This document shows positions 49,957 to 64,000 of a stretch of 64,000 nucleotides of DNA, piece after piece (within the stretch, counting starts at the first letter, position 1; every line of letters starts with the position of its first letter). The stretch is from contig CAWJTV010000027.1 of the NCBI GenBank assembly GCA_963845755.1, positions 263,571-327,570 on the forward strand, in the 5' to 3' direction. The notes beneath the pieces are model-generated. The model did not search any database. It saw nothing but the letters and a program-made list of their open reading frames with translations, and had not been told where the DNA came from. Source of the DNA: an uncultured Planctomycetota bacterium. GTDB lineage: Bacteria; Planctomycetota; Planctomycetia; Isosphaerales; Isosphaeraceae. Made by a program: the position numbers and the translations under genes.

Positions 49957-51499
49957 GAGTCTGTTCCAGGAGCGCGGTGCTCTTCCGCCTGGCGACGGAA
50001 TCGAACGGCTGGACGTCCGAGCGGCTCTGTTTCACGGCAGGGCCGCGTACGGGGCGGCCAGGGCCTCGAGGTCGCGGAGGAGTACGTCCTGGGGCGGCGT
50101 CAAGGAGTGTTTCCGCCCCTGGCGGGCGGCAGCCAGGACTGCGGCGGCATCGCCGCGCTCGGTGTGCAGCACGGCTAGCCCGAACCACGCTTCGCCCAGG
50201 GCGGGGTCGAGCTCCAGGGCGGCGCGGTAGGTCCGCTCGGCGGCGGCGAAGTCCAGGGCGGCCAGGTCGGCGGTGGCCAGGCGCGCCAGGCGGAGCGCCG
50301 GCGCGGGCGGATCCTCGGCGCTGGCCCAGACCCGGCGCGCCTTGGCCGGGTGGCCCAGGCGCAAGAGCGTCGCCGCCACGCGGTCGCACTCCGGCCAGTC
50401 ACGGCGGATCGGGCGCCCGTCGGCCTCTGCAGACTCGCGCTGTATCGGGATCGTCAGGGCAGGCTCGCCGTCGCTCGTCCCCTGGGCTCGCAAAGCCTGA
50501 TCGAGCAACTGGGCGGTCTCGGTCTCCTCGGGGTTCAGCTCCAAGGCGCGGCGGAAGCAGAAGGCGGCCTGCGCCGGCAGGAGCCCGCGGCGGGGTCCCA
50601 GGGCTCGACGAGGTGGGGCCGCAAGGCCGTCGGGTCGGCGACCATGGTCCAGCAGGCGACCCCCAGCGAGATCCAGGGGCCCGCCGCCGTCGGCTCAAGG
50701 ACGATCGCCCGCCGGAGGGAATCGCCGGCCAGCAGCACGAGGGAGGACGGGAGCTGCCGGGACCTCCCGGGCCGACTTCGCACCGCCCACCCGAGGTCGA
50801 GCAGCCGCCTTGGCCCGGGCGAACTCCGACGGCGCGGGGAGCACGGCCGGCCACGCCGGATCGTGAAGCGACGATTGGAAGTGCCGCGCCGCGAAGTCCA
50901 CACTCGGAAACGTGGCCTCGAGGTCGTGCCGGCGCCGCGAAACGAAGACCGAGGCGATCGCGTCGTAGTAAATGCAGCGCCAGTCGGGATCGGCCAGGAG
51001 CGTCGCCTCGGCGCCGATGTAAATCTCGTGTTCGAGGAGGATGAGGGGGTCACCCATCCGGGCCAGGGCTGGTTTCCATCCGGGTTTGCCCGAATTGAGC
51101 ATCCGATCGAGACGGACGTAGGTTTCCGAAGGTCTCGCGGAGGGGCACTTCGAGGCGACCGTCCAGGAAAACCTTCCGCTGGGGGCCATTGTGGAAGAGG
51201 TAGACACCGGCCTGGCGCGTGTCGTAAACCAGGGCTCGATCGGGGAGGCCCGGTCGTCCGGCGAAGTGCGCGGCGTCGTGTGCATAGGTCAACGGCTCGT
51301 CGGAGAAGCCGAACTGCCGCGAATCGCCCGTGCCGCGGGAGAACCGTCCGGATGCGATCGCGAGGACAATCAGCCCAGCCAGGCCGGCAAGGGCAGCCCG
51401 CATCGCCAGGCCCGTTGCGGACCGGATCCAGGGCGGCGCGCCCCGGAGCGGGGATCACGGCAGCGAGCTCAGTAACCCAGGGGCCGAGGTTGGCGGTTA

Positions 51500-52819
51500 G
51501 GAACCGCGAAAAAATAAGTTGAGCAATTTCGGGTTGCGGAATTATGCGGCTTCGACGATCCTTGCCGCATGCAAGACACAACCACCATTGAGTGTATCCG
51601 GCAGAAGTACCTGGCGCTGTCTCCTGTGATGGACGAGCAGATACGCAGACTGTGGGTAGCTACTGAGGCTTCCGCCTTGGGTTGGGGCGGCGTCACGGCC
51701 GTCTCCCTGGCTACGGGTGTGGCTCGTAATACGATCGCGGCGGGGCTTCGTGAACTGGAAGATCGTCGTGCTCATCCGGAGCCGAGCCCGCGTTGCGGAT
51801 TCGTCGCCCTGGTGCCGGTCGCAAGCTCCTGACCGAGACCGACCCGGGATTGCAACAAGCTTTGGAGGTCTTGGTCGATCCGGCGACCCGAGGGCATCCG
51901 GAGTCGCCGCCTGCGCTGGACCTGTAAGAGCACCAGTAAGTTGGCCGAGGAACTTCGGAATCAGGGGCACGCCGTGTCGGACCGCGCGGTCGCTCACCTC
52001 CTGAAGAAGGCCGGCTATAGCCTGCAAGCCAATCGCAAGACGAGAGAAGGCTCCTCGCAGCCGGACCGCAACGCCCAGTTCGAGTACATCAACCGACAAG
52101 TGATCGCATACCAGAGGCGCAGTCAACCGGTCGTGTCCGTCGACACCAAGAAGAAGGAATTGGTCGGCGAATTCAAGAACCCGGGTGAGGAATGGCAACC
52201 CAAAGGCGAGCCGGAGGAGGTCAAAGTCCATGACTTCCCGGACAAGAAGTTGGGTAAGGCGATCCCTTATGGGGTATACGACCTCGCTCATAACGAAGGC
52301 TGGGTCAGCGTGGGGATCGATCACGATACGGCGCGGTTCGCGGTGGCCAGCATCGGGCGCTGGTGGCGGGAGATGGGTTGCCGGCGCTATCCGCGAGCTA
52401 CGCAATTGATGATCACCGCGGACGGGGGCGGAAGCAATGGCAGCCGCAACCGACTGTGGAAGCTGGCATTGCAAGACCTGGCCAGTGACTTGGGTATGTC
52501 GCTGCGCGTGTGTCACTTCCCACCGGGGACCAGTAAATGGAACAAAATCGAACATCGGCTCTTCTGCTTCATTACCAAGAACTGGCGGGGCCGGCCGCTG
52601 ACGAGCTACCAGGTGATCGTGAACCTCATCGCGAATACGACGACGAAGACGGGCCTGACGGTGCGTGCCCTCCTGGATACCGACGTATATGAGACCGGAA
52701 TCGAGGTCAGTGACGAGCAACTTGCTAGCCTCAAGTTAACGCCGGCCAAGTTTCACGGAGAGTGGAACTACACAATCCGCCCCCAGAAATAATTGCTCAG
52801 GTTATTTTTTCGCTGTTCC
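51500..52819 (+). mobile_element. ISAzo13-family insertion sequence
   Basis: TIR GGAAC(C/A)GCGAAAAAATAA(GT/CC)TGAGCAATT at both ends; 3-bp TSD TTA (51497-51499 and 52820-52822). Confidence 0.92.
51569..52792 (+). CDS. ISAzo13 (Rhodopirellula-type DDE) transposase, frameshifts near 51790 and 51910
   Basis: YSLQANRKT.EG..PDRNAQF, ISVDTKKKEL-like VSVDTKKKEL, HDT..FAV, ADGGGSN, PPGTSKWNKIEHRLF, FHGEWNYTI. Confidence 0.92.
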
Positions 52820-54625
52820 TTAGCACGAAGCCGGCCACCACGGCGAAGAGGCTGACGTTGCGCAGCGCCTTGGAGAGCGAGATAGCTGAACGCCGCCGCC
52901 AGGCCCATCCAGAACAGACGACCGCCGGCGCGAAGGGTCAAGGCGGCGACCGCCAGGCCCAGGAGCATGGTCAACCCGCTCAGGGCCATCGAACCGGGCC
53001 CGGGCACCCCGAGCCAGGCCGCCGGCCCGGGCTCGGGGCCCAGCAAGTACGCTCGCAGCCAGACCACCCACGCCGCCGCGGCCAAGCCCCCCAGGGCCGG
53101 CAGCCACGCCGCCCTTGCGGACGACTTCCCTTGATGGACGGCGCCGGCGATTCCCAGCGCCACCAGCCCGATTGGGGCGAGCCGCCCGAGTCGGACGAGC
53201 CACCCCGGTGTCCCCAGGCCGGGAAATCCCAGCACGCACGCCCCGAGCAGGCCCACGGCCAGTCCGAACCCGCCGAGTGAGGCGATCGCTTCCGCCGGGC
53301 GCGCGGCCTCGGATCGCGGACGTGTGGACCGTCCGGACCGCCAGACGGCCGGTCCCAGGAAGCTCAACGGCACCGCCCAGAGCAGCCAGCACTCGCCTCG
53401 GAAATAGAGGTTGCCCGCGGTGGTCGGAACGTCTCTCTGCACGTACCCCCGCAGATCCGCGATTTCCGCGATGTACGATTTGTAGGATCCCCCCCAGGCC
53501 GTGATCTTGGGGAAGAGCTCCAGAGGGAGCAGGGCCCCGCGCAGGCCATAAGGGTTCACCAGGCAGGCGAGGCCCACCAGCACCGCGGCGCCCGCGTGTT
53601 GGCCCCACCCGCGTCTCCGCCGGAGCGGCCCCTGCAGACCGGTGGTCGCGTCCCGATCCCGCCACCCGGCCAGGCGATCGATCAGGTAGGTGCCCAGGAT
53701 GATCGGCCCCAGCACGAAGAGCCCATGCACATTGACCCACAGCACCTGGATGACAGGCAGGATCCAGGCCAGTTCGGGCCGGCGGTCGGTCCGCGACAGC
53801 ACCGCCAGATAGGCCGCCATTGCCAGGAGCGTCAGGATCTCGGGACGGGGATCGGCCCGATTGCTCATGACCACCAGCGCCGGCAGCCAGCAGGCCGCGA
53901 CGATCCAGCTCGGCCATCGACGATCTCGGGCCGTCCAGGCAATCAGGAACACACCCGCGTATGCCACGGCGGTCATCAGGATCATGCCAGGTACCCCGCC
54001 AATCGCGAAGACCGCCGCCAGGATCACCTGGAACAGCCAGTGCAAGTCGATCCAGGGGCGATCCGCCGAGGCGAACGTGAACGGGTCGAGCGCAGGGGCC
54101 CGGTGGTTGGCCCAGATCCATTGCCCGGCACGCAAATGCCACCAGACGTCCGCGTCGTAAAGCTTCTGGCAGCCCAGCGCGAAAGCGGCTGCGACCATGA
54201 GCGACAGCAAGGCGACGTCAGCCAACCGTCGGGCGCGGTCCACGGGCGCGGGGTTCGGTAGAGGTTCCATGGGCGATTCGGGGCCAGAAAAGCCGCCAGG
54301 ATGGGTTTGGGATAGGAACCCGAGTTTCGACTTGAGCCGATTCTAACCCCTTGATGCCCGCGGTGCGCAGCCCGATCGAGCGGACGCGCCGTACGACCGC
54401 AATCTGCCCCGTACTGGCTTCCCTCCGTGGCCCAGCGGATTACCTCAGAATGTCCCCTGGTATGCCCCCGAGTTGCGTCCCCGTCTCGGGGCCCGCGATG
54501 CCGCTGACAAAAAAGGGACAAAGGACAAAAAAGCGGGGACGTAGCGCTTTTGGGAGCGGCCCTCTCCGCTCGCAGCCGGACCACGAGCCGATGCTCTCGA
54601 ACTTCCTGGTATTTGAACACGACTA

Positions 54626-54747
54626 AGAGTCTGTCCCAGAAGGGGCCGGTCCGGGCGAGCGGGGGGCGTCAGCCCCCTGTCTTGGAGGTTCGTCGCTCAC
54701 CGGACAGGGGGCTGACGCCCCCGCTCGCCCTTCTGGGACCGACTCTA
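54626..54747. repeat. Nested palindromic element (REP doublet inside outer inverted repeats; MITE/REPIN-like)
   Basis: Outer AGAGTCTGTCCCAGAAGGG / CCCTTCTGGGACCGACTCT; inner GGGCGAGCGGGGGGCGTCAGCCCCCTGTC / GACAGGGGGCTGACGCCCCCGCTCGCCC. Confidence 0.8.
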
Positions 54748-55249
54748 ATAGCCGGAATGGCCGATGGTCGTGGCGTTGCAGCCGATCCCGGATAGGAATT
54801 GGCGGAACTTTGTGTGGATGTGGTCGTCGCAACGAGAGACGAGGAACTCGACGTCCTGGATGACTTTCAACACGGTCCCGCTCGTATCCATTACATGCGG
54901 CGATATCTTGGGGCGATTATAGTTGTGGATGCAGTCGTGCCGGCGCTGGAAGATATCCCGGAAACGATCTTGCAATCTGGTTCGCCAGCTTCCTCGCTTC
55001 GTTCTACTCCGCGGGGGTCATCGCCAGGTACGCCGTTCGGGTGACCCCCAACAGGCGCTCCTTCGCGTCGGGTCGGCTGAGCCAGTTGTCCAGGAGGCCG
55101 CTGAAGAACCGCTGATTCTCCCTGAAGAACTTGTTAAAGAGAGTCTGGATGGTCGAGAGACTCAGGACGTTCTCCCTCTCCATCATCTTGCGAGCGGCCA
55201 TCCGCCATCGCCAGTTCGGATTCTCATCCCTATGTCCATTCATCCTCAA
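54745..55249 (-). pseudogene. HEPN-domain protein remnant (N-terminally truncated, internal stop and frameshift)
   Basis: LQDRFRDIFQRRHDCIH Rx4-6H motif in a helical context; upstream NWRWRMAARKMMERENVLSL; TAG at 55004-55006. Confidence 0.55.
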
Positions 55250-55339
55250 ATGTCTCCTGGCTCCTTCCTCTCAGCGAGGCCGATGAAGGTAAGTGCTCAA
55301 CGTCCCGTCCCAAAACCATTCACGGCAGGCTTTTTAGAG

Positions 55340-55401
55340 GCCCTAACAAAGATGGGGACTGGCAGCTCGAAGACTCGGAGCCAGTCCCCATTTTGTTAGG
55401 G
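55340..55401. repeat. Palindromic element with GGGGACT core
   Basis: CCCTAACAAAGATGGGGACTGGC...GCCAGTCCCCATTTTGTTAGGG; followed by a further TTGTTAGGG. Confidence 0.75.
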
Positions 55402-58400
55402 CTTGTTAGGGACACTGCGGTTGTGGTTGTCGAAATCGACGACATAGAGCGAGACCTCGTGCGCCTTGCCGTCGGTGAAGTCGAGGTTAAAGCTCAATAG
55501 TGGTGGAGGAGTCCCAGGTCGAGGCGATCCGGCCGTTGCCGGCGGCGTTCTGCCGGCGCGGGCGTCGGTCGTGCTGGCGGCCCAGACGTAGGTGGAATTG
55601 CCGCTCGGCGAGACGGTGGGGTAGGAGGACAAGCTGGGCGTGTCGTCGATGACGTCGTAGCTTTGAGTGTCGTAAGTCCCGATCCAACTGCCCTGCGTCG
55701 TCGTGTCCGTCTTGACGACCGTGGCCGAGGAGCTTGCCGGATCGACGAAGAGGCCGCTGAGCACCGCGTTGGCGCCGGCCTCGTGCGTGATCGTGATCAC
55801 CACGTCGCCTTGCACCTTCCAATCCAGATACGCGCCACCGGTGAACGACGAGACCGTCTCGGTGTCCAGGACCGTCCCCGTCTTCGCGTCGCTGATCTGG
55901 ATCTGCTCGACCCGGCTCGGCGAGCTTTGCAGGTCGAGGAAGTACAGCTCGATATCGTGCGCCTGCCCGTCGATCAGGTTCAGGTTCACCGTGAAGCTGG
56001 TCGCGGAGTACCAGCACTCCTCGATCCGGCCGGAACCGCCCGGGTTCTGGAGCGCCTGGGGGGCGGTCGAGCTGGCCGACCAGACGTGGGTCAATTCGCC
56101 GCTGGGCGTGACGGTGGCGTAAGGGGACAGGCTGGGCGTGTCGCCGATGACGTCGTAGCCCTGCTTGCCGTAGGTCCCGATCCAATTGCCCTGCGTCGTC
56201 GTGTCCTTCTTGAGGAACGTGGCCGAGGAGGAGGAGGTCGTCGCAGCCGGATCGACGAAGAGGCCGCTGAGCACCGCGTTGGCGCCGGCCTCGTGCGTGA
56301 TCGTGATTACCACGTCGCCTTGCACCTTCCAATCCAGATACGCGCCACCGGTGAACGACGAGACCGTCTCGGTGTCCAGGACCGTCCCCGTCTTCGCGTC
56401 GCTGATCTGGATCTGCTCGACCCGGCTCGGCGAGCTTTGCAGGTCGAGGAAGTACAGCTCGATATCGTGCGCCTGCCCGTCGATCAGGTTCAGGTTCACC
56501 GTGAAGCTGGTCGCGGAGTACCAGCACTCCTCGATCCGGCCGGAACCGCCCGGATTCTGGAGCGCCTGGGGGGCGGTCGAGCTGGCCGACCAGACGTGGG
56601 TCAATTCGCCGCTGGGCGTGACGGTGGCGTAAGGGGATAGGCTGGGCGTGTCGCCGATGACGTCGTAGCCCTGCGTGCCGTAGGTCCCGATCCAATTGCC
56701 CTGCGTCGTCGTGTCCTTCTTGAGGAACGTGGCCGAGGAGGAGGAGGTCGTCGGGACCGTGGCGGCGTTGCTGAACTGCGAGGTCGCGGAGAGGCCGAGC
56801 GAGGAGGTCGCGGTGACGATCTGACCAGCCGGGACCGTCGCACTGATCGTGACGGTGAAGTTGACGTTGCCGTTGGTATCAGTCGTCACGTTCGCCTCGC
56901 CGATGTATGTCTTGCCCTGGATGGAGGCGGCCGAGGTCGAGTACGGGCTGGCGAAGAAGTCGAGGCTCAACTGGGTGCTCTTCGACGGCGAGCCGAAGAT
57001 CGAGCCCGTAATCGTCGTCTGGCCGTTCACCGAGGTCGCCGAGGTCAGTACCGGCGCCGGCTGGAGCGAGGGGTTGCCTTGCTCGAGGATCCCTCCCAGG
57101 GCGTTGTTGAAGATGTCGCTGTCGCGGAAGCTGTTGTTGGTCGCCCCGTTGGTCGTCAAGATGCCGTAGCCGGCGTTGTTGGCGATCAGGTCGAGCTGCA
57201 AGTTCGTGCCCACGACGCCGTTGACGAGCAGGCCGTCGCCGCCGTTGCCGATCGCCTTCTGGTCGGTGACGTCGGCGCCGACGGTGGTGAAATAGATGCC
57301 CGTGCCGGCGGCATCGACCTCGATGCCGTTGGCGGCATTGCCCGAGATGAAGTTGAGGGTCGCGAAGGTGCCGTTACCCGCGCCGATGGTCGTCCCCGAG
57401 GTCCCGGCGCGGACCAGCACGCCGTCGTTCGCGTTGGGCACGGCCCCGGTGCCGGCGGCGTTGGTGCCGATGAAGTTGCCGGCGATGCTGGTGCCGGAAG
57501 TCCCGCTGTCGGTCACCAGGATGCCGTTGGTGCCGTTGCCCGAGATGACGTTATACTGGGTGTAGGAGCTGGCGACCGGGTTGCCGATGGTGTTGTTGAC
57601 GGCGCCCAGGCCGACGTAGACGCCGTCGAGCACGTTGGGCACGGCGACGGTGCCGGTGTAGTCGGTGCCGATGTAGTTGCCCTCGACGACGTTCTTGTTG
57701 GCGCCGAGGCCGATGAGGACGCCCTCGTTCGAGTTGCCCGAGATGACGTTGCGGGCGGCCGACGGTGGTCCCGCCGACCGTGTTGCCCGCCGCCGAGTTG
57801 ACGATGTCCAGGCCGTTGTCGGCGTTGGGGACGGCTGCGGTGCCCGCCGCGTTGGTCCCGATGTAGTTGTTCTCGACCGTATTGTTGTCCGTGTTCGGGT
57901 CGCTGATGTACACGCCCCAGGTCTTGTTGCCCGAGATCACGTTGTTGTAGCCGGACGACGCGTAGCCGATGAAGTTGCTGGAGGACTGGCCTGAGATGAG
58001 GACGCCGTCCCCGCCGTTGCCCAGGGCGACCTTGCCACCGGCGGCGAGCCCGATGAGGTCATTCACGACGGCGTTGCTGTCGGTATTCGTCCCGGTGAGG
58101 CTGACGCCGTTGCCCGCGTTGCCCGAGATGATATTCGGGCTGTACCCCACGAAGCCGACATAGTTACCGGTCGCGCCGGAATTGACGGCCACGCCGTCGC
58201 CGGCGTTGGGCAGGGCATTCGCGCCGTTGATGTCGGCGCCGATGTCGACGCCGAAGATATCGTTGTAATCGCTGCCGGAGATCAGGACGCCGTCGCCGCC
58301 GTTGTTCGAGATGACCTCCGGGGCCGAGGAGGTGCCGGTGACCAGGTTGCCGGCCGCGCCGGCGTCGATGGCCACGCCGCTGAGGCCGTTGCCGTAGGAG

Positions 58401-59388
58401 GCGCCGGACCCGTCGGTCGCGTGCAGTCCGGTGAGGTCGGTGCCGATGACATTGCCCTCGACGTCGTTGGAGTTCGTCGAGGTGCCGGTGATGTAGACGC
58501 CGTAGCTCTTGTTGCCCAGGATGACGTCGCGGGCGCCGGCCGTGGTCCCGCCGATGGTGTTCAAGGACGCCCCGCCGTTGATGACGATGCCGCTGCCGCC
58601 GCCGCCGTGCTGACCGTTCCCCAGCAGGTTGCCCGGGTCGTCCACGACGGCCTCGCCGGTGTTGTCCGACCCGATGATCGTGCCGCTGACCACGTTCTGG
58701 ACGGTGCCCGGGCCCGAGAGGATGATGCCGTTGTAGGAGTTGGCCGAGACGATGTCGTCGGAAAGGAGGTCGCCGGTGGACGAGCCGCCGTTCTCACTCT
58801 GGATCGTCACGCCATAGGTGCCGTTGCCCTCGTAGATCGTGTTACCATTCGCATCGGGGCCGGTTGCGTTGGCGTTGGGGTCGATGCCGACCCAGTCGTT
58901 GCTGAGCGTGACATTCGAGGCGTTGTCGACGAGCACGCCGCCGGAGTTGAACCCGTCGATGGCCAGGGCCTTGACCTGCGTCCCCGAGGCGGTGATGTCC
59001 AGGCCGATGGCCGAGCCGCCCGCATAGTTCCCGATGAGCTGGACGAACGGGTGGGCGCCGTTGTAGCTCAGTTCGGTGGTCCCGTCGACGATCACCGGCT
59101 GCGTGATCGTCGGCAACTGGGACTGGAGCTGGATCCGCGCGACGTTGACGAGGCCATTGAAACTGATGACGTTGGGGTTGGTCGCCGTGGCGGCGGTGTT
59201 GTCCGAGTTGATGATGGCCTGGCGGAAGCTGCCACCTCCGCTGTCCGCTGAATTGTCGACGTAGAAGGTGTCAACAGGAGCTCCCGGGTCTCCAGGTGCT
59301 CGATCCCGCAGCGTCTGCGGAGCCGGGCGCGACGGGAAGGAGTGGTGGACCGGGCGGGGCGCAGCAGGGCATACCACGGCGTCTTCAT
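55396..59388 (-). CDS. Large secreted parallel beta-helix protein with planctomycete leader and tandem 170-aa C-terminal domains; frameshifts near 59270 and 57760; C-terminus truncated
   Basis: RRRCGIEHLETRELL leader; repeated GNxIGTxxxG..NVISGN motifs; repeats DTTTQGNWIGTYG..NAVLSGLFVD. Confidence 0.85.
55734..56753 (-). repeat. Two near-identical 510-bp intragenic tandem repeats (plus a diverged partial third copy at 55396-55733)
   Basis: GGCCGAGGAGGAGGAGGTCGTCG recurs at 56221 and 56731; only a few substitutions seen between copies. Confidence 0.9.
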
Positions 59389-59812
59389 GGTGGGAGTCCT
59401 CTCGGCGCGGCCGGCGACCGGATGCGGCGCAGGTGAACGACACCTGCGTCCGCACGACGACCCGAAGTCCGCGATGATGTGTCGCGAGGCCGGTTATGTG
59501 GAAGGATGACCGGTGTCGGGGTTCTTTCCCACCGCCCGGTCGGGCCTCGGTACACCTTGTAAATGGTCGTGCCGCACCTCGACCGGACACCATCCGTCAA
59601 GATTCCTTTCCCGCGACCCCGGGAAGCCCGCGAGAACACGGGCGTCGCGGCGGAGCCCCCGACTTTAGTCTTGGGGGGAGCCGCCCCTTGTTATGACGAT
59701 TGGATTCTGACACGATAGGACTAGCCGGTGATCCTTCGGGACAGTCCGGTGGCCGGAAGGCCGGGCCGCCGTCAAGCGTCCTATCGTCGTCCGTCTCGGG
59801 AAGGGGGAAAAA

Positions 59813-60556
59813 GGGGAAAAAGGGGACATAACGAATTACTCCAGCTTCTTAGGACGGCCTCGCCCCCGCAGGGTGAATTCCAGTCCCAATCTCCCGGCCG
59901 TCTCCCGGGTCCACGTTTCATCACCGTACGGTCGCCCCCGTTCCACGGACAGTCTGAGCCGCTGAAGATCCCCCGCCGATAACGGCTCATTGACTCGCTC
60001 CAACCACCGCTCATCCCGAACCGGAACCACCCCACTCCACAACAGCCGATCACCGCGGAGCCACCCCGGTAGGCTCGACCATTTCCAGTCCTCCGCTCGG
60101 GACACCAGTTCCGCCCGCAAGGCGTTGCGCTCCACGTAGCGAACCACGCCGATGAGATGGTCGTCGTCTTGCACCGGGAACGCTTTGAACCGCCCCTGCC
60201 AGACGTGGCCCGTGGTCTGATAGTGCCGATGATAACGCCGGACGTGAGCCATCAGCAGCCACTGCATCCACCGCCCGAGATCGCCGTCGGCCTGCGTCCG
60301 GAGCACCAGGTGGAAGTGATTGGGCATCACGCAATAGCCCAGCAGGTCGAACTCGGAGGCGCGCTTGGGCATCGGCGATGGCCTTGACGAAGGCGTCATA
60401 GTCGGCCGGTTTGTGAAAGACCTCCTCGCGACGGTTGCCGCGATTGAGCACGTGATACCAGGTGTCAGCGACCGAAGCTCGTGCGGTTCTGGGCATCGCC
60501 CCATCATAACAGAGAGAGCCGGGTCCACGCAGTATTCGTTATGTCCCCTTTTCCCC
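59813..60556 (-). mobile_element. RAYT unit 1: Y1/HUH transposase gene tightly bracketed by inverted repeats
   Basis: GGGGAAAA(A)GGGGACATAACGAA at 59813-59835 and its reverse complement at 60535-60556. Confidence 0.7.
59836..60496 (-). CDS. REP-associated tyrosine transposase (Y1_Tnp), frameshift near 60355
   Basis: MPRTAR..YHVLNRGNRREEVF, YCVMPNHFHL (HUH), GHVWQGRFK, YVERNALRA..WKWSS, RGRGRPKK. Confidence 0.92.
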
Positions 60557-60609
60557 CTACGCTGGTGGTCTCGGTGGTCGTTTCGGAATCGGTCGAGTCG
60601 GTGGGGAAG

Positions 60610-60654
60610 AAAGGGGTCAGGAGCCAAAACGCAGAATCGGCTCCTGACCCCTTT
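60610..60654. repeat. REP-like hairpin with GGGGTCAG core
   Basis: AAAGGGGTCAGGAGCC-AAAACGCAGAATC-GGCTCCTGACCCCTTT. Confidence 0.8.
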
Positions 60655-60882
60655 GATCCGTCCAACAACGGTGGCTCCCGCGAGCGAAGATTTCGGGGCT
60701 CGATCGCACGGCATTGGGACCCGCTGTCTACGCTTCGCAGTGGCGGTCGCCCGTCACCACGCAAGACTCGCTTCCGGCTGCTGGCTAGGCTCTGCCGGGT
60801 GGGATTCGTTCACCCACAGGGTTGCCATGAAAGGTTTCCGAGTTCGAGTCTCTTCCTCCCTTCTCGAGCTTACCTGACGCTA
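60655..60882 (-). ncRNA. 5' fragment (domain I) of a bacterial group II intron; no RT ORF or domain V/VI seen
   Basis: Minus strand reads (TA)GCGTCAGG..AAGCTCG..GGAAACCTTTC..AACCCTG..AATCCC..CCGGCAGAGC..GCCAGCAGCCGGAAGCGAGTCTTGCGTGG..GGGCGACC..TGCGAAGCGTAGACAGCG, recognised by eye as a group II intron 5' end. Confidence 0.65.
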
Positions 60883-60906
60883 TGACACCATTTATTCCCC
60901 TACTGT

Positions 60907-61222
60907 TTAATCCCGCTTTCCCCCTTTTGCGCCCGAGCTTGAGAGAAGGAAAATCGGAACGTCGGCTCCATCGACACTATCGTCAACATAAACGAGCATC
61001 AATCCTTGCAATTGAGCATCAGTCGTTGTCAAGGCATCCGGAAAGCCAAATTCGACATCACCGTACTTGTAGATGGACGGAGCATAATATTCCGGTTGTG
61101 GGAAGCTTATATCATCCGGTGTCGCCAAGTGTGTTCTGCAATTCCGTTCGTGTCATGCCGAGCCTGACCCGACCGCCCTCGATCAAGCTCGACACGAGGT
61201 CAAGTTTTCGGATCATACTCAC
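60907..61222 (-). CDS. Small putative immunity protein (frameshift near 61120)
   Basis: GTGA overlap with upstream stop; RLGMTRTELQNTLG.PDD..IYKYGDVEFGF; lower GC than flanks. Confidence 0.55.
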
Positions 61223-62752
61223 GCACCCCCCAATGCTTCCAGGGCCAATCGCACCTGTCGCAGCTCCTCGGCTCTTCGAACCGCTAGTTCCGAACCCTCC
61301 CCTCGGAGGTATCCCTCTGCACGTAGAGCGGTTCTTAGCAATTGCTGTCTAAAAGTGGCATTCTCTGCTAGCAACTTCTCAGCCTCTTTGATCGCCGGAC
61401 CAGCCATCTTGGCCTGCGAACTGAACGCTGGCTCGAAACCGACACCTCCAGCCCTCGGTACTACCCTCAACTCTATGCTCTTGACCTTGAAGTGTAGGCC
61501 CTTTACGGCATAGTCTTGAGCAACCGGTGAAATCTTTATAAATGGGGGCAGCCACCGGCCTTAATGCCGGCTTGGCCCGCAGTGGCGCCATTAAGAACCT
61601 CGTCTGGGTCACCTGAAAGAAGTCGCCTTCCCCCCGCAATCACTCGTCCCGGTGGCGTCTGGCTGACGACTGCCTCAGCCGTCTGCTTGCCCATGTGGGT
61701 TATCATGTTGACGGCATTCTGTCCAGCTACTTGGCCATTGATCCCCCCGTACCTTGGCTGTTCTCGAACATCATATATTGTCGATGGCTCGGTTGGAGCG
61801 GAGTTGCCGTAGTAGACCCCGCTAGCTTGGTCAGCTTGTTGATTCGCCAAGATCTGCTCATCAAGTTTTTGGCCCCTCGCGAATTCGGCGTCTTGTGCCG
61901 ACTTGGTAAATGGATAATAAATAAGGTTTCCAGAGTCCCGCAAGGAAACCGCCGCCGAGAATTATCGGCGACCTCGTGGCCTCCGCCGGGCGGGTCAACT
62001 ACCTCGCTGCCGACGGTGGGGATGGTGATGTCGGTGGGGTTTCGTCCGGCGGCGGCCAGGGTCGTCAGCGTCGCCGTCGGCGACGGCGGGGCACTACGCG
62101 AGACGCCGTCCGGCGCCTTTCGGTCTAGGGCCATGTTGTTCAGGTCGGTAACTTCCTGAGTCGGCAGGCCATTGGCGGTCGCGGCGTTGGTGTTCGGGGT
62201 GAAGCCAAAAGACTGATCGTAGACGATCTTCCCTAATGCTACCGACCCCCCCCGTAGGGCCCCGCAGACTCGGGAGCCGTGAAGTCGCCTTCTAAAAAGT
62301 CTGAAAGATAAATACTATCAGAATTCGATTCCGGACCGACCTCGTAGGGTCCTACCGCCCTCGAACGGATAAGTTGGTCTTGTATATCCAATAGTATACC
62401 ACCGTATGCGGCGCTCACCGGTGACACAGTTCCGGCACTCGAGAGGCCGGAACGCCCCCCCAGAAGCCAGATTCCGAGCCGTCGGTCTCACCCAACACGG
62501 CGTCAACACTCCCTCATGAATCCCGTGACATCGTCACCCGATTCAAATATTATATATAGGTCGTCTATAAATTCATATGTAGAAGCGCAGTCCACTGGTT
62601 CGAAACCCGCCCTCGGGCCAGCTAGCGTCCCCTGTGATATTATCCAAGAAAGAGCCGGTGTCTACGTCCGACATGGACGAGTAGCCGTCGCTTGTCGTAG
62701 CGCAACCGCCATCTTCCGTCAAGGAGGTGCTTTGCCAGTCGTCGCTTGCTCC
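61219..62752 (-). pseudogene. Orphan C-terminal part of a large secreted polymorphic-toxin-like protein
   Basis: Ser/Thr/Asp-rich reading with no start codon, then IKISPVAQDYAVKGLHFKVKSIELRVVP..LRQVRLALEALGGA*; several frame breaks; coupled small downstream gene. Confidence 0.45.
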
Positions 62753-62753
62753 A

Positions 62754-62904
62754 GGGAGGTCGGGTCAAGGGAGGTCGGGGTCAGGGAGGTCGGGGTCAGA
62801 CCAGGTTTCGGGTTTTTCCCTGGCGTCGCGAAGGTTGGGATGTTACCATCCCGAGGATGCCACAGGGAGGTCGGGGTCAGACCAGGTTTCGGTTTTTTCC
62901 CTGG
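62754..62904 (+). repeat. GGGAGGTCGGGGTCA tandem array and doubled left inverted repeat of RAYT unit 2
   Basis: GGGAGGTCGGG(G)TCA x4; CGGGGTCAGACCAGGTTTCGG(G/T)TTTTTCCC at 62791 and 62872. Confidence 0.85.
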
Positions 62905-62934
62905 CTCTGGACGGTCGTGATGTTAATCACGGGC

Positions 62935-63988
62935 ATGCCACGACGACTCCGAATCCAATACCCCGGCGCGATCTACCACGTGATGGCCCGCGGCAACGGT
63001 CGCCAGGACATCGTGCGCGATGACGCGGATCGCGACCGGCTCCAGCAGGAGTTGGGCCGGGCGGTCGGGCGTTGCGGCTGGCGCGTCTACGCGTTCGTGA
63101 TCCTGTCGAACCACCTCCATGTGGTCCTCAAGACGCCGCAGCCCAATCTCGCCCGCGGCATGCAGGCGTTCCTCTCCGCCTATGCCAACGCCTCGGCGCG
63201 ACGACATCGGTTTTGCGGCCATGTCTTCCAGGGGCGCTATCGGGCCGAACTGGTGGAAGACGAGACCTACCTCTGGACGGTGACGCGGTACGTGCACCTC
63301 AACCCGGTCCGCCCCGCTTGGTGGAGCATCCCTCGGCCTGGCGGTGGTCGAGTTATCCCGGCTATGCCCATCGCGGCCGCCGGCTTGAGTGGGTCGCGTA
63401 TGACGAATTGCTGGCGTCCTGGGGTGGCGAGTTCGGTGGTTCGGATCCGGCCGGGGCGTACCGACGGTATGTGACCGCCGGGTTGGTGGAGCCTCCGCCC
63501 TCGCCGTGGTCGGAGGCTCGTCAAGGCTGGATCTTGGGGAGTCTTGAGTTCGTGGCGAGGCTGGGGAGCTGGTACGTGGTGCCCCGCCGCGGGTGCTGCG
63601 TCGCGAATCGCGATTGATCCAAGGAGTCGAGTTGGAAAGGGTTTGCGAGGTGGTCTGTCGGGAGTATCGAGGTGGAGTCGTCGGAATTGAGCCGGCGTGG
63701 GAACTCGGCATGAGGCGCGGGCCGCATTGGCGTACCTGGCGCGCCAGCACACGGTGGCGACCCACGGGGAACTGGCCGCGTTGCTGGGCGTGTCCCGCGC
63801 CGGACAGCGTACCGAATCTGACGCGGCGGTTCGCCCGGTGGCTGGCTGAGCGAGACGACGTCCGCGAGCGTCTCGGCGTGTTGGAGGAGCAGTTGCGGTT
63901 GCTTCAGGTCTCGGCTACCCGAAAAAACCTGAAACCTGGTCTGACCCCGTCCTTCCTCCGTCTCGAAAAAACCAGAAACCTGGTCTGA
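62935..63988 (+). CDS. REP-associated tyrosine transposase with C-terminal helical (DnaA-C/HTH-like) extension; several frameshifts
   Basis: MPRRLRIQYPGAIYHVMARGNGRQDI, ILSNHLHV (HUH), GHVFQGRY, YVHLNPVR, WSSY; C-terminal ALAYLAR..ELAALLG. Confidence 0.88.
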
Positions 63989-63993
63989 CCCCG
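63921..63993 (-). repeat. Doubled right inverted repeat of RAYT unit 2
   Basis: AAACCTGGTCTGACCCC at 63932 and 63977, reverse complement of the left repeats. Confidence 0.85.
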
Positions 63994-64000
63994 ACTGCTG

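Follow-up and report, generated by a model that had tools for sequence, protein, structure and literature searches.

Ends of mobile TIRYT elements where genes break and orphan toxin cassettes begin, in an Isosphaeraceae genome and its relatives

The window analysed here is a 64,000-nucleotide stretch of an uncultured planctomycete that ends in a decayed island (54.5–64 kb) holding a polymorphic-toxin remnant, several gene fragments and two genes of the RAYT type (tyrosine transposases associated with REP sequences, or repetitive extragenic palindromes). Judged by their sequences, both RAYT genes are TIRYTs, the enzymes of TIRtrons (group 1, subclass 2.1), and the GGGG(A/T)C repeats beside them are terminal inverted repeats (TIRs) of the published type. 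Orphan cassettes of the window's toxin family were shown to start repeatedly at a TIR, and the unit running from TIR to TIR has been copied to new sites. In the reading that we prefer, and that we regard as an even call, the ends of mobile TIRYT elements lie where genes are broken and where orphan toxin–immunity cassettes begin, and the TIRYT nuclease would cut and rejoin single-stranded DNA there, trimming and copying cassettes.

The window is the terminal part of contig C27, which finishes 5 bp past the final repeat, in a draft genome of 14.3 Mb, 64% G+C and 88% completeness. The nearest named relatives of the window transposase belong to Isosphaeraceae. As related genomes do not count as independent samples, the cross-genome p values below all overstate the evidence.

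Both TIRYT genes matched PF01797 above its cut-off and matched NF047646 at 62–75 bits, under the 80-bit cut-off of that family. Their translations contain the Y1 HUH motifs HFH/HLH and YVERN/YVHLNP. Enzymes of subclass 2.1 carry a helix-turn-helix domain in a C-terminal extension; both window genes have such an extension, with no Pfam or NCBIfam match to the frameshifted pieces of gene 2. The TIRs of gene 1 pair over 25 bp at 96% identity, and those of gene 2 over 29–35 bp at 89–97%. The gene 2 TIR fits the consensus GGGG[AT][CG]A[CG] exactly (GGGGTCAG); that of gene 1 deviates at the last base (GGGGACAT). GGGG(A/T)C cores were located at 54535, 55354/55384, 59822/60543, 60613/60646, 62777/62792/62873 and 63943/63987. 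The core that the original prediction had described as common to the listed elements, a lone copy and both RAYT flanks is thus real in position and motif, as is its assignment of the element at 54626 to a different family: 54627–54745 contains no such core. The prediction had also called these sequences palindromes, which is true of 55337–55405 (−28.1 kcal/mol) and 60610–60657 (−19.1 kcal/mol) only; the sequences flanking the RAYT genes, like the lone copy, are single TIRs with little tendency to fold (−0.5 to −6.0 kcal/mol). Where a REPtron would have flanks of GTAG-tagged REP hairpins, the window genes have TIRs folding at −0.5 and −3.8 kcal/mol, and where it would be single-copy and non-duplicating, TIRtron 1 has a 98% copy at a second locus. 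The assumption that these were REP-hairpin RAYTs was accordingly dropped in favour of TIRYTs with published GGGGWSAS TIRs. Since single TIRs are not hairpins, the premise of nicking at REP hairpins is not directly transferable.

The copy of TIRtron 1 lies at C47:224422–225157 and carries an intact enzyme gene (C47:224483–225139). The sequence shared by the two copies ends at both TIRs, with no target duplication. In genome G071, a 330-bp TIR–TIR mini-element is duplicated at 98.8% identity, its left boundary falling exactly at GGGG. The TIR-to-TIR unit was thus shown to have been copied to new sites, together with its gene in the case of TIRtron 1 and with no gene in that of the G071 mini-element. 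TIRYT matches numbered from 4 to 31 per genome in five family genomes. Among TIRYT relatives, of which 79 loci were kept from 591, 32 of the 67 with full flanks had a GGGGWS TIR pair. As described for TIRtrons, TIR copies occur as dimers or clusters elsewhere in the genome, and different TIR end types were found stacked side by side. A separate observation concerns an IS110 element that starts directly after the right TIR of the C47 copy (L020:5143–5460; C47:225157) and is itself cut by a TIR dimer 284 bp on; IS110 may target TIRs.

Judging from its homologues, 61219–61551 is a real polymorphic-toxin tip: 57 homologues were collected, and an Rhs core preceded the tip in 10 of the 15 long ones scanned. 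The tip had no Pfam, NCBIfam or Atlas match. A single-sequence structural model reached a pLDDT (predicted local distance difference test score) of 78, and its best fold match (Z 6.4) was not meaningful. The island shows the make-up of an orphan cassette, namely a constant pre-toxin region, swapped tips and an adjoining candidate immunity gene. The pre-toxin domain also occurs in open reading frames (ORFs), the longest of 3518 aa, and as orphan copies arranged in tandem, and a search with 61539–61961 among longer proteins gave no match. The copy in genome G001 is 81% identical up to 61558, then continues into a different tip. A small partner gene follows the tip. The window toxin and both TIRYT genes contain frameshifts.

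In G001 (two loci), G093 and G064, toxin-family fragments begin directly at a TIR, where an intact paralogue continues across the junction. In G071, an orphan fragment lies shortly behind the right TIR of a 73% relative of window gene 2. G001 carries a 2.0-kb toxin–immunity cassette at two loci that are 97.7% identical; the cassette is headed by a TIR dimer of the window gene 2 type, and one copy ends ~6 bp from another such TIR. In P0121, a protein from another assembly, the window tip (99% identity) is fused to translations of each of the three TIR types of the window. Its breakpoint corresponds to 61551 rather than 62752, ~16 bp past the border between conserved and variable sequence. The DNA encoding P0121 was not found in the metagenome collection in which it was sought, and its cluster has one member. 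Apart from the G071 gene and window gene 2 (73%), array-linked TIRYTs of different genomes are ~36–50% alike, and their TIR sequences also differ. The toxin link is therefore not one inherited event.

TIRs and TIRYT genes were also frequent around such cassettes. The 11 best-matching pre-toxin stretches, representing 10 independent loci, held 16 TIR clusters in 183 kb, with TIRYT genes in four arrays. Pooled over all toxin loci, 22 clusters were counted in 317.5 kb as compared with 4 in the 400 kb of 20 control stretches (p = 2.7e-5), the controls being hand-picked at round coordinates rather than matched variable islands. A TIRYT gene lay within 6 kb of four of nine pre-toxin loci in five genomes (expected, 0.13). 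In the three genomes with transposase controls, this was the case for 4/5 pre-toxin loci versus 0/5 for IS66 and 0/5 for ISAzo13. Finally, one TIR had 11 exact copies in G064, of which 9 were inside the two toxin arrays of that genome.

At Rhs loci the result was split, bare TIRs being frequent and TIRYT genes not enriched. A bare TIR, with its purine tail, occurred within 6 kb of an Rhs core in 4/12 cases in the window genome (background 2.8%) and in 6/30 in G001 (background 2.2%), and Rhs genes were cut at TIRs in L014, L030 and L036. Bare TIRs were not enriched at HINT (0/5) or SMI1 (0/5) loci. Around 12 chosen TIR-rich loci, the 121 nearby ORFs were a mixture of Rhs, insertion sequence (IS) transposase, intron reverse transcriptase, glycosyltransferase, toxin–antitoxin and restriction genes. 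In two genomes, a related small ORF follows an Rhs toxin, immunity gene and TIR (L013:3934–4362, L025:4129–4590).

The hexamer itself was rejected as the functional unit: bare GGGG(A/T)C has 21,389 genome copies, so that the likelihood of a copy at most 40 bp from a given position is 11%, and at that number it is not informative. Its A-tailed form was 3–8-fold enriched, with 10.2 per 1000 hexamers versus 1.3–3.2 for seven control hexamers. GGGGWC formed 102 inverted pairs; the counts of six control cores ranged from 18 to 68, and GGCG[AT]C, a far more frequent sequence, gave 191. Bare, purine-tailed TIRs were found at 58 loci in 36 regions, and the 73-bp TIR type at 18 genome loci.

To locate breakpoints, paralogues within the same genome were used to map where homology breaks off inside a gene at up to 1.4 kb from the outward edges of TIRs. 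The first 40 bp outside bare TIRs contained 6 of 13 such breaks (p = 8e-7). Per flank, breaks were found at 6/69 for bare TIRs, versus 3/146 for shelled cores, in which a 36-bp TIR–TIR core sits within TNA-flanked arms (p = 0.03), and 3/116 for a 119-bp coreless element (p = 0.08). The predicted enrichment of truncated-gene ends at the motif is thus borne out for bare TIRs and fails for the shelled class represented by 55337–55405. Alignments revealed abrupt cuts at TIR tails in six cases, the purine tails of TIRs joining mid-gene sequence. The cut genes that could be named were an IS110 transposase, a glycosyltransferase-type gene and an S1/P1 nuclease; no conflict genes were among them.

Four gene fragments in the window had been proposed to break at the motif. 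Two of these junctions fit TIRs (the intron 3' end and the toxin 5' end), one is ambiguous (beta-helix) and one does not fit (HEPN). The intron fragment is indeed flush with the 60610 hairpin: its homology to a longer copy on contig C19 ends at 60663, no more than ~6 bp from the hairpin arm, and 60639–60808 matched Rfam group-II-D1D4-6 at 85.6 bits. Likewise, the toxin fragment at 62576–62752 has no start codon and adjoins a TIR tail, as had been said. It matched the inside of long relatives weakly (30–43% identity, E 0.08–0.5) and nothing in 120 family genomes. The beta-helix gene does stop inside the 55337–55405 element, as claimed; its homology to the repeat breaks mid-repeat at ~55414–55436, outside the TTA duplication of that element and 25–50 bp from the GGGGAC core. 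As for HEPN, the alignments of 88 of 88 full-length homologues reach its final codon (54748), which makes the 3' end a natural one. Its 5' break (55216–55249) joins the 88-bp end of another mobile element (55246–55333), 108 bp from the core. HEPN was rejected as TIR-captured cargo because of this natural 3' end and the 5' break at a different element. Other elements are the most likely source of both the beta-helix and the HEPN break.

Two further observations concern these fragments. Several group II intron fragments (window 60883–60896; C22:4683, C15:116057, C3, C14 and C33) start near the same point, at a GGTGTC motif. In G001, a TIRYT gene has this motif as its left end (L111:12830–12860); the motif could be either a variant form of TIR or a cryptic site of cutting. 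The 55246–55333 sequence forms the end of an unclassified mobile element whose long terminus is conserved and non-coding, with relatives in G021, G015 and G001; two G021 copies have at least 260 bp more in common and diverge right past the end.

The chemistry of HUH enzymes suggests how these junctions could arise. A TIRYT would nick at or beside GGGG, and strand transfer would follow without target duplication. In a one-ended reaction, a TIR would be joined to a nearby site, so that the front of a gene is deleted or a downstream tip and its immunity gene are carried elsewhere. Such events would be expected to yield adjacent deletions, tandem tails and copied cassettes. The arrays may then be retained because immunity genes protect and because tips can recombine into a full-length toxin. 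On this scheme, TIRYTs would act as cassette trimmers and copiers for this toxin family and as ordinary insertion elements elsewhere.

Several results weigh against trimming and copying by TIRYTs. Three of the best pre-toxin loci, two with very long toxin ORFs, had no TIR clusters or TIRYT genes, and 13 weaker toxin-family loci had no TIRYT gene and 6 TIR clusters in 134.5 kb (p = 0.02). TIRYT genes were not enriched at Rhs loci (1/81 versus 1.06 expected), where IS66 was (4/64 versus 0.85 expected). Of 146 genes next to TIRYT relatives in different phyla, 70 could be assigned to a Pfam family; only 6 of those 70 were of conflict type, the neighbours being mostly housekeeping genes. Homology ends clustered at the edges of all three repeat classes (13/49, 14/82 and 14/73), which makes part of the signal a general feature of mobile elements. 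A protein-level truncation test gave no significant excess at TIRs (6/22) over random intergenic points (20/124); its control was biased, many random points falling inside uncalled genes, and the distance test described above superseded it. P0121 is known as a protein alone and may be misassembled. No TIRYT biochemistry was found in the literature, the in vitro cutting and strand transfer on record being those of group 2 and 3 RAYTs at REP hairpins. Finally, an empty site or syntenic locus was sought in 40 relatives, and nothing was syntenic beyond the upstream gene; with no close strain carrying an empty site among them, capture of foreign DNA is not shown.

TIRtrons might instead be selfish insertions that pile up in dispensable islands, landing by preference beside other TIRs and causing adjacent deletions in arrays that merely tolerate them and whose cassettes gain nothing. 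We consider this somewhat unlikely. The frameshifts in the window toxin and both TIRYT genes suit it, as do the accumulation of IS66 at Rhs loci, the broken neighbours, which include IS110 and other transposases, a glycosyltransferase and an S1/P1 nuclease, and the mainly housekeeping neighbours across phyla. Furthermore, passages of Bertels et al. (10.1101/119735) present group 1 as the most IS-like RAYTs, with 6.3% duplicates. Mere tolerance is harder to reconcile with pre-toxin arrays that IS66 and ISAzo13 clusters avoid (0/72) and TIRYT clusters do not (5/45; p = 0.007), with the restriction of 9/11 copies of one TIR to two arrays in the 16-Mb genome G064, and with the duplication of a TIR-headed cassette together with its immunity gene. 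The opposite extension, in which TIRYTs are a co-opted cassette engine whose HUH nuclease uses the TIR as an attachment site, clips tips and immunity genes from resident or incoming DNA and pastes them into arrays, strikes us as doubtful.

Host recombination or replication slippage between repeated TIRs or TIR-like sites, rather than TIRYT catalysis, is an improbable source of the junctions. TIR tails are tandem partial repeats such as slippage would produce, and the P0121 junction, just past the conserved/variable border, falls at a TIR-end-like site. Nevertheless, the intact paralogue lacks a TIR-like sequence at most aligned junctions, and the arrays themselves contain TIRYT genes. More improbable still is the original prediction in its full form, that the activity of RAYTs leads to the capture and stockpiling of conflict modules generally, including toxin tips, immunity genes and HEPN. 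Truncation at bare TIRs, a mobile unit and toxin-family cassettes starting at TIRs all survive from it; Rhs tips (L030, L036 and L014) are among the orphan tips that begin at TIRs in several genomes, and toxin–antitoxin and restriction genes lie near some TIRs. What does not survive is its generality: HEPN is not cut at the motif, bare TIRs are not enriched at HINT and SMI1 loci, the neighbours of TIRs are mixed, the broken genes are not mainly conflict modules and no TIR was seen with an insertion of foreign DNA. Assembly errors at repeats are very unlikely to account for the junctions, frameshifts being many and reads shallow notwithstanding. TIR clusters stand at both ends of C27 (including window position 64000) and at the end of C24, so TIRs may break assemblies and may be under-counted. 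Public read runs contained 11–13% of words in two cases, and three were too shallow to bridge any junction. Against this, the same layout recurs in independent genomes with different TIR sequences, and G001 has the same cassette junction at two loci.

Trimming and copying by TIRYTs can be set beside several described systems. In the relevant passages of the source papers, TIRtrons with their TIRYT gene (Di Nocera et al. 2013, PMC3733652) correspond to TnpA-REP subclass 2.1 (Quentin et al., 10.1101/279083) and RAYT group 1 (Bertels et al., 10.1101/119735). As those passages portray them, TIRtrons share with the window elements an HUH/Y1 gene between long GGGGWSAS TIRs, TIR dimers and clusters elsewhere, and duplication above that of other RAYTs. 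The main-text passages of the TIRtron papers describe this structure and include no boundaries of duplicated copies, gene truncation at TIR tails or link to toxin cassettes. In marine picocyanobacteria, TnpA-REP genes stand beside prochlorosins, and a diversifying role was proposed for them (Laurenceau et al., 10.1101/2020.03.09.984088). There too, the same RAYT subgroup adjoins a diversifying gene family of antagonism type. However, the prochlorosin case has no inverted repeats, and its authors later saw no strong evidence for causation (10.1101/2020.03.09.984088); in the window, TIRs are the cassette borders, and the cargo comprises polymorphic-toxin tips and immunity genes.

Polymorphic-toxin loci (Zhang et al. 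2012, PMC3482391) share with the window, in the sections of that paper concerned, a constant pre-toxin region, a variable tip, an adjacent immunity gene and arrays of start-less cassettes. Those sections attribute cassette exchange to recombination and contain no TIR-bounded cassettes; the word 'transposase' occurs once in the searched text of PMC3482391, for a URI-domain relative, and 'HUH' never. The E. coli REPtrons (TnpA-REP with REP/BIME, bacterial interspersed mosaic element) belong to the same enzyme superfamily, and passages of PMC8266576 report their cleavage and strand transfer on single-stranded DNA in vitro. These passages describe REPtrons as recognising GTAG-tagged hairpins and as not self-moving, whereas the window TIRs are not hairpins and the whole unit is copied. 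No paper tying TIRYT or TIRs to toxin cassettes was found in the literature searched, which comprised main texts and few subscription journals. Already known are TIRtrons, their TIRs and a proposed link of subclass 2.1 to lanthipeptide diversity, later qualified by its authors. A TIRtron copy bounded by TIRs, truncations at bare TIR ends and TIRs as toxin-cassette borders were not found in print.

Two questions are at stake: what RAYTs do, group 1 (TIRYT) being their largest group, and how orphan toxin–immunity cassettes first arise, which is poorly explained. The locus offers TIRYT ends from a duplicated copy, an intact enzyme copy (C47) and natural junctions that predict sites of cutting and joining, so both questions are testable with the existing cleavage-and-strand-transfer assay. 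If trimming and copying is correct, TIRYTs trim and copy pieces that stock the toxin arsenal of the cell. A cassette engine, if true, would amount to integron-like acquisition built on RAYT chemistry and to the first concrete host function for group 1 RAYTs. The features of the island and its neighbour are collected in Table 1.

Table 1. Features of the island and adjoining sequence, in window coordinates
Feature	Coordinates	Strand	Remarks
ISAzo13-family transposase (PF07592)	51490–52829		39-bp inverted repeats; adjoins island
Lone TIR, core 54535	54508–54549	+	A/G-rich tail of partial repeats; 1 mismatch to TIR of TIRYT on contig C34
Miniature inverted-repeat element, 119 bp	54624–54748	.	TAA on both sides; coreless
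HEPN remnant	54745–55225	-	Homologues carry PF18735; residues ~99–257 of 257; internal stop and frameshift
Terminal 88 bp of longer mobile element	55246–55333	.	Joined by HEPN 5' break
Shelled element	55334–55408	.	TTA + arm + 36-bp TIR–TIR core (55354–55389) + arm + TTA
Beta-helix/repeat protein gene	55396–59275	-	Frameshifted; cut mid-repeat just outside shelled element
TIRtron 1	59812–60558	-	TIRYT gene 59836–60496 between GGGGACATAACGAAT TIRs; one frameshift relative to its copy
TIR dimer hairpin	60610–60657	.	GGGGTCAGGAGCC type; 5 loci in genome
Group II intron fragment	60663–60896	-	3' end flush with hairpin; 5' end at GGTGTCA TIR-like motif, purine tail
Likely immunity gene	60907–61216	-	Frameshifted; weakly like partners following this tip elsewhere
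Polymorphic-toxin C-terminal tip	61219–61551	-	Last domain of proteins of up to 1361 aa
Conserved pre-toxin region	61558–62250	-	Isosphaeraceae toxin family, 13/121 genomes
Start-less fragment	62576–62752	-	Weak likeness to inside of long toxin stalks; abuts TIR tail
Left TIR array of TIRtron 2	62754–62898	+	GGGGTCAGACCAGGTTTC plus tandem partial copies
TIRYT gene 2, long form	62935–63910	+	Several frameshifts
Right TIRs of TIRtron 2	63923–63995	-	Contig end 5 bp beyond

The two TNA-flanked classes were abundant in the genome, the 36-bp core of the 55337–55405 class with 91 copies and the 119-bp element of the 54627–54745 class with ~85. Both window representatives have terminal inverted arms and a 3-bp TNA duplication, TAA/TAA for 54627–54745 and TTA/TTA for 55337–55405. 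From this duplication, we label them putative miniature inverted-repeat transposable elements of the IS5 type. The 54627–54745 element was rejected as part of the TIR system for its TAA duplication and its lack of a core. The two ends of the 36-bp core match the two TIRs of a Geomonas TIRtron. Matching TNA on both sides occurred in 22/73 core copies versus 15% for swapped flanks. A search for an autonomous partner with the same ends returned 11 long candidates, and the one fully examined was the same miniature element with another insertion inside.

The core of the shelled class is nearly invariant, and its ~16-bp arms vary between copies yet remain self-complementary, 29/91 core copies scoring at least 9 for arm self-complementarity versus 5% of swapped pairs. 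TNA-flanked arms of a similar kind also surround other REP dimers, including GTAG types. Four paralogous empty sites lacking arms and core were identified, with some loss of target bases. Within the 119-bp class, L159 (C11:280253–281770) and three similar sites have their REP interrupted by a 1.4-kb insertion element, whose position is the same in several copies.

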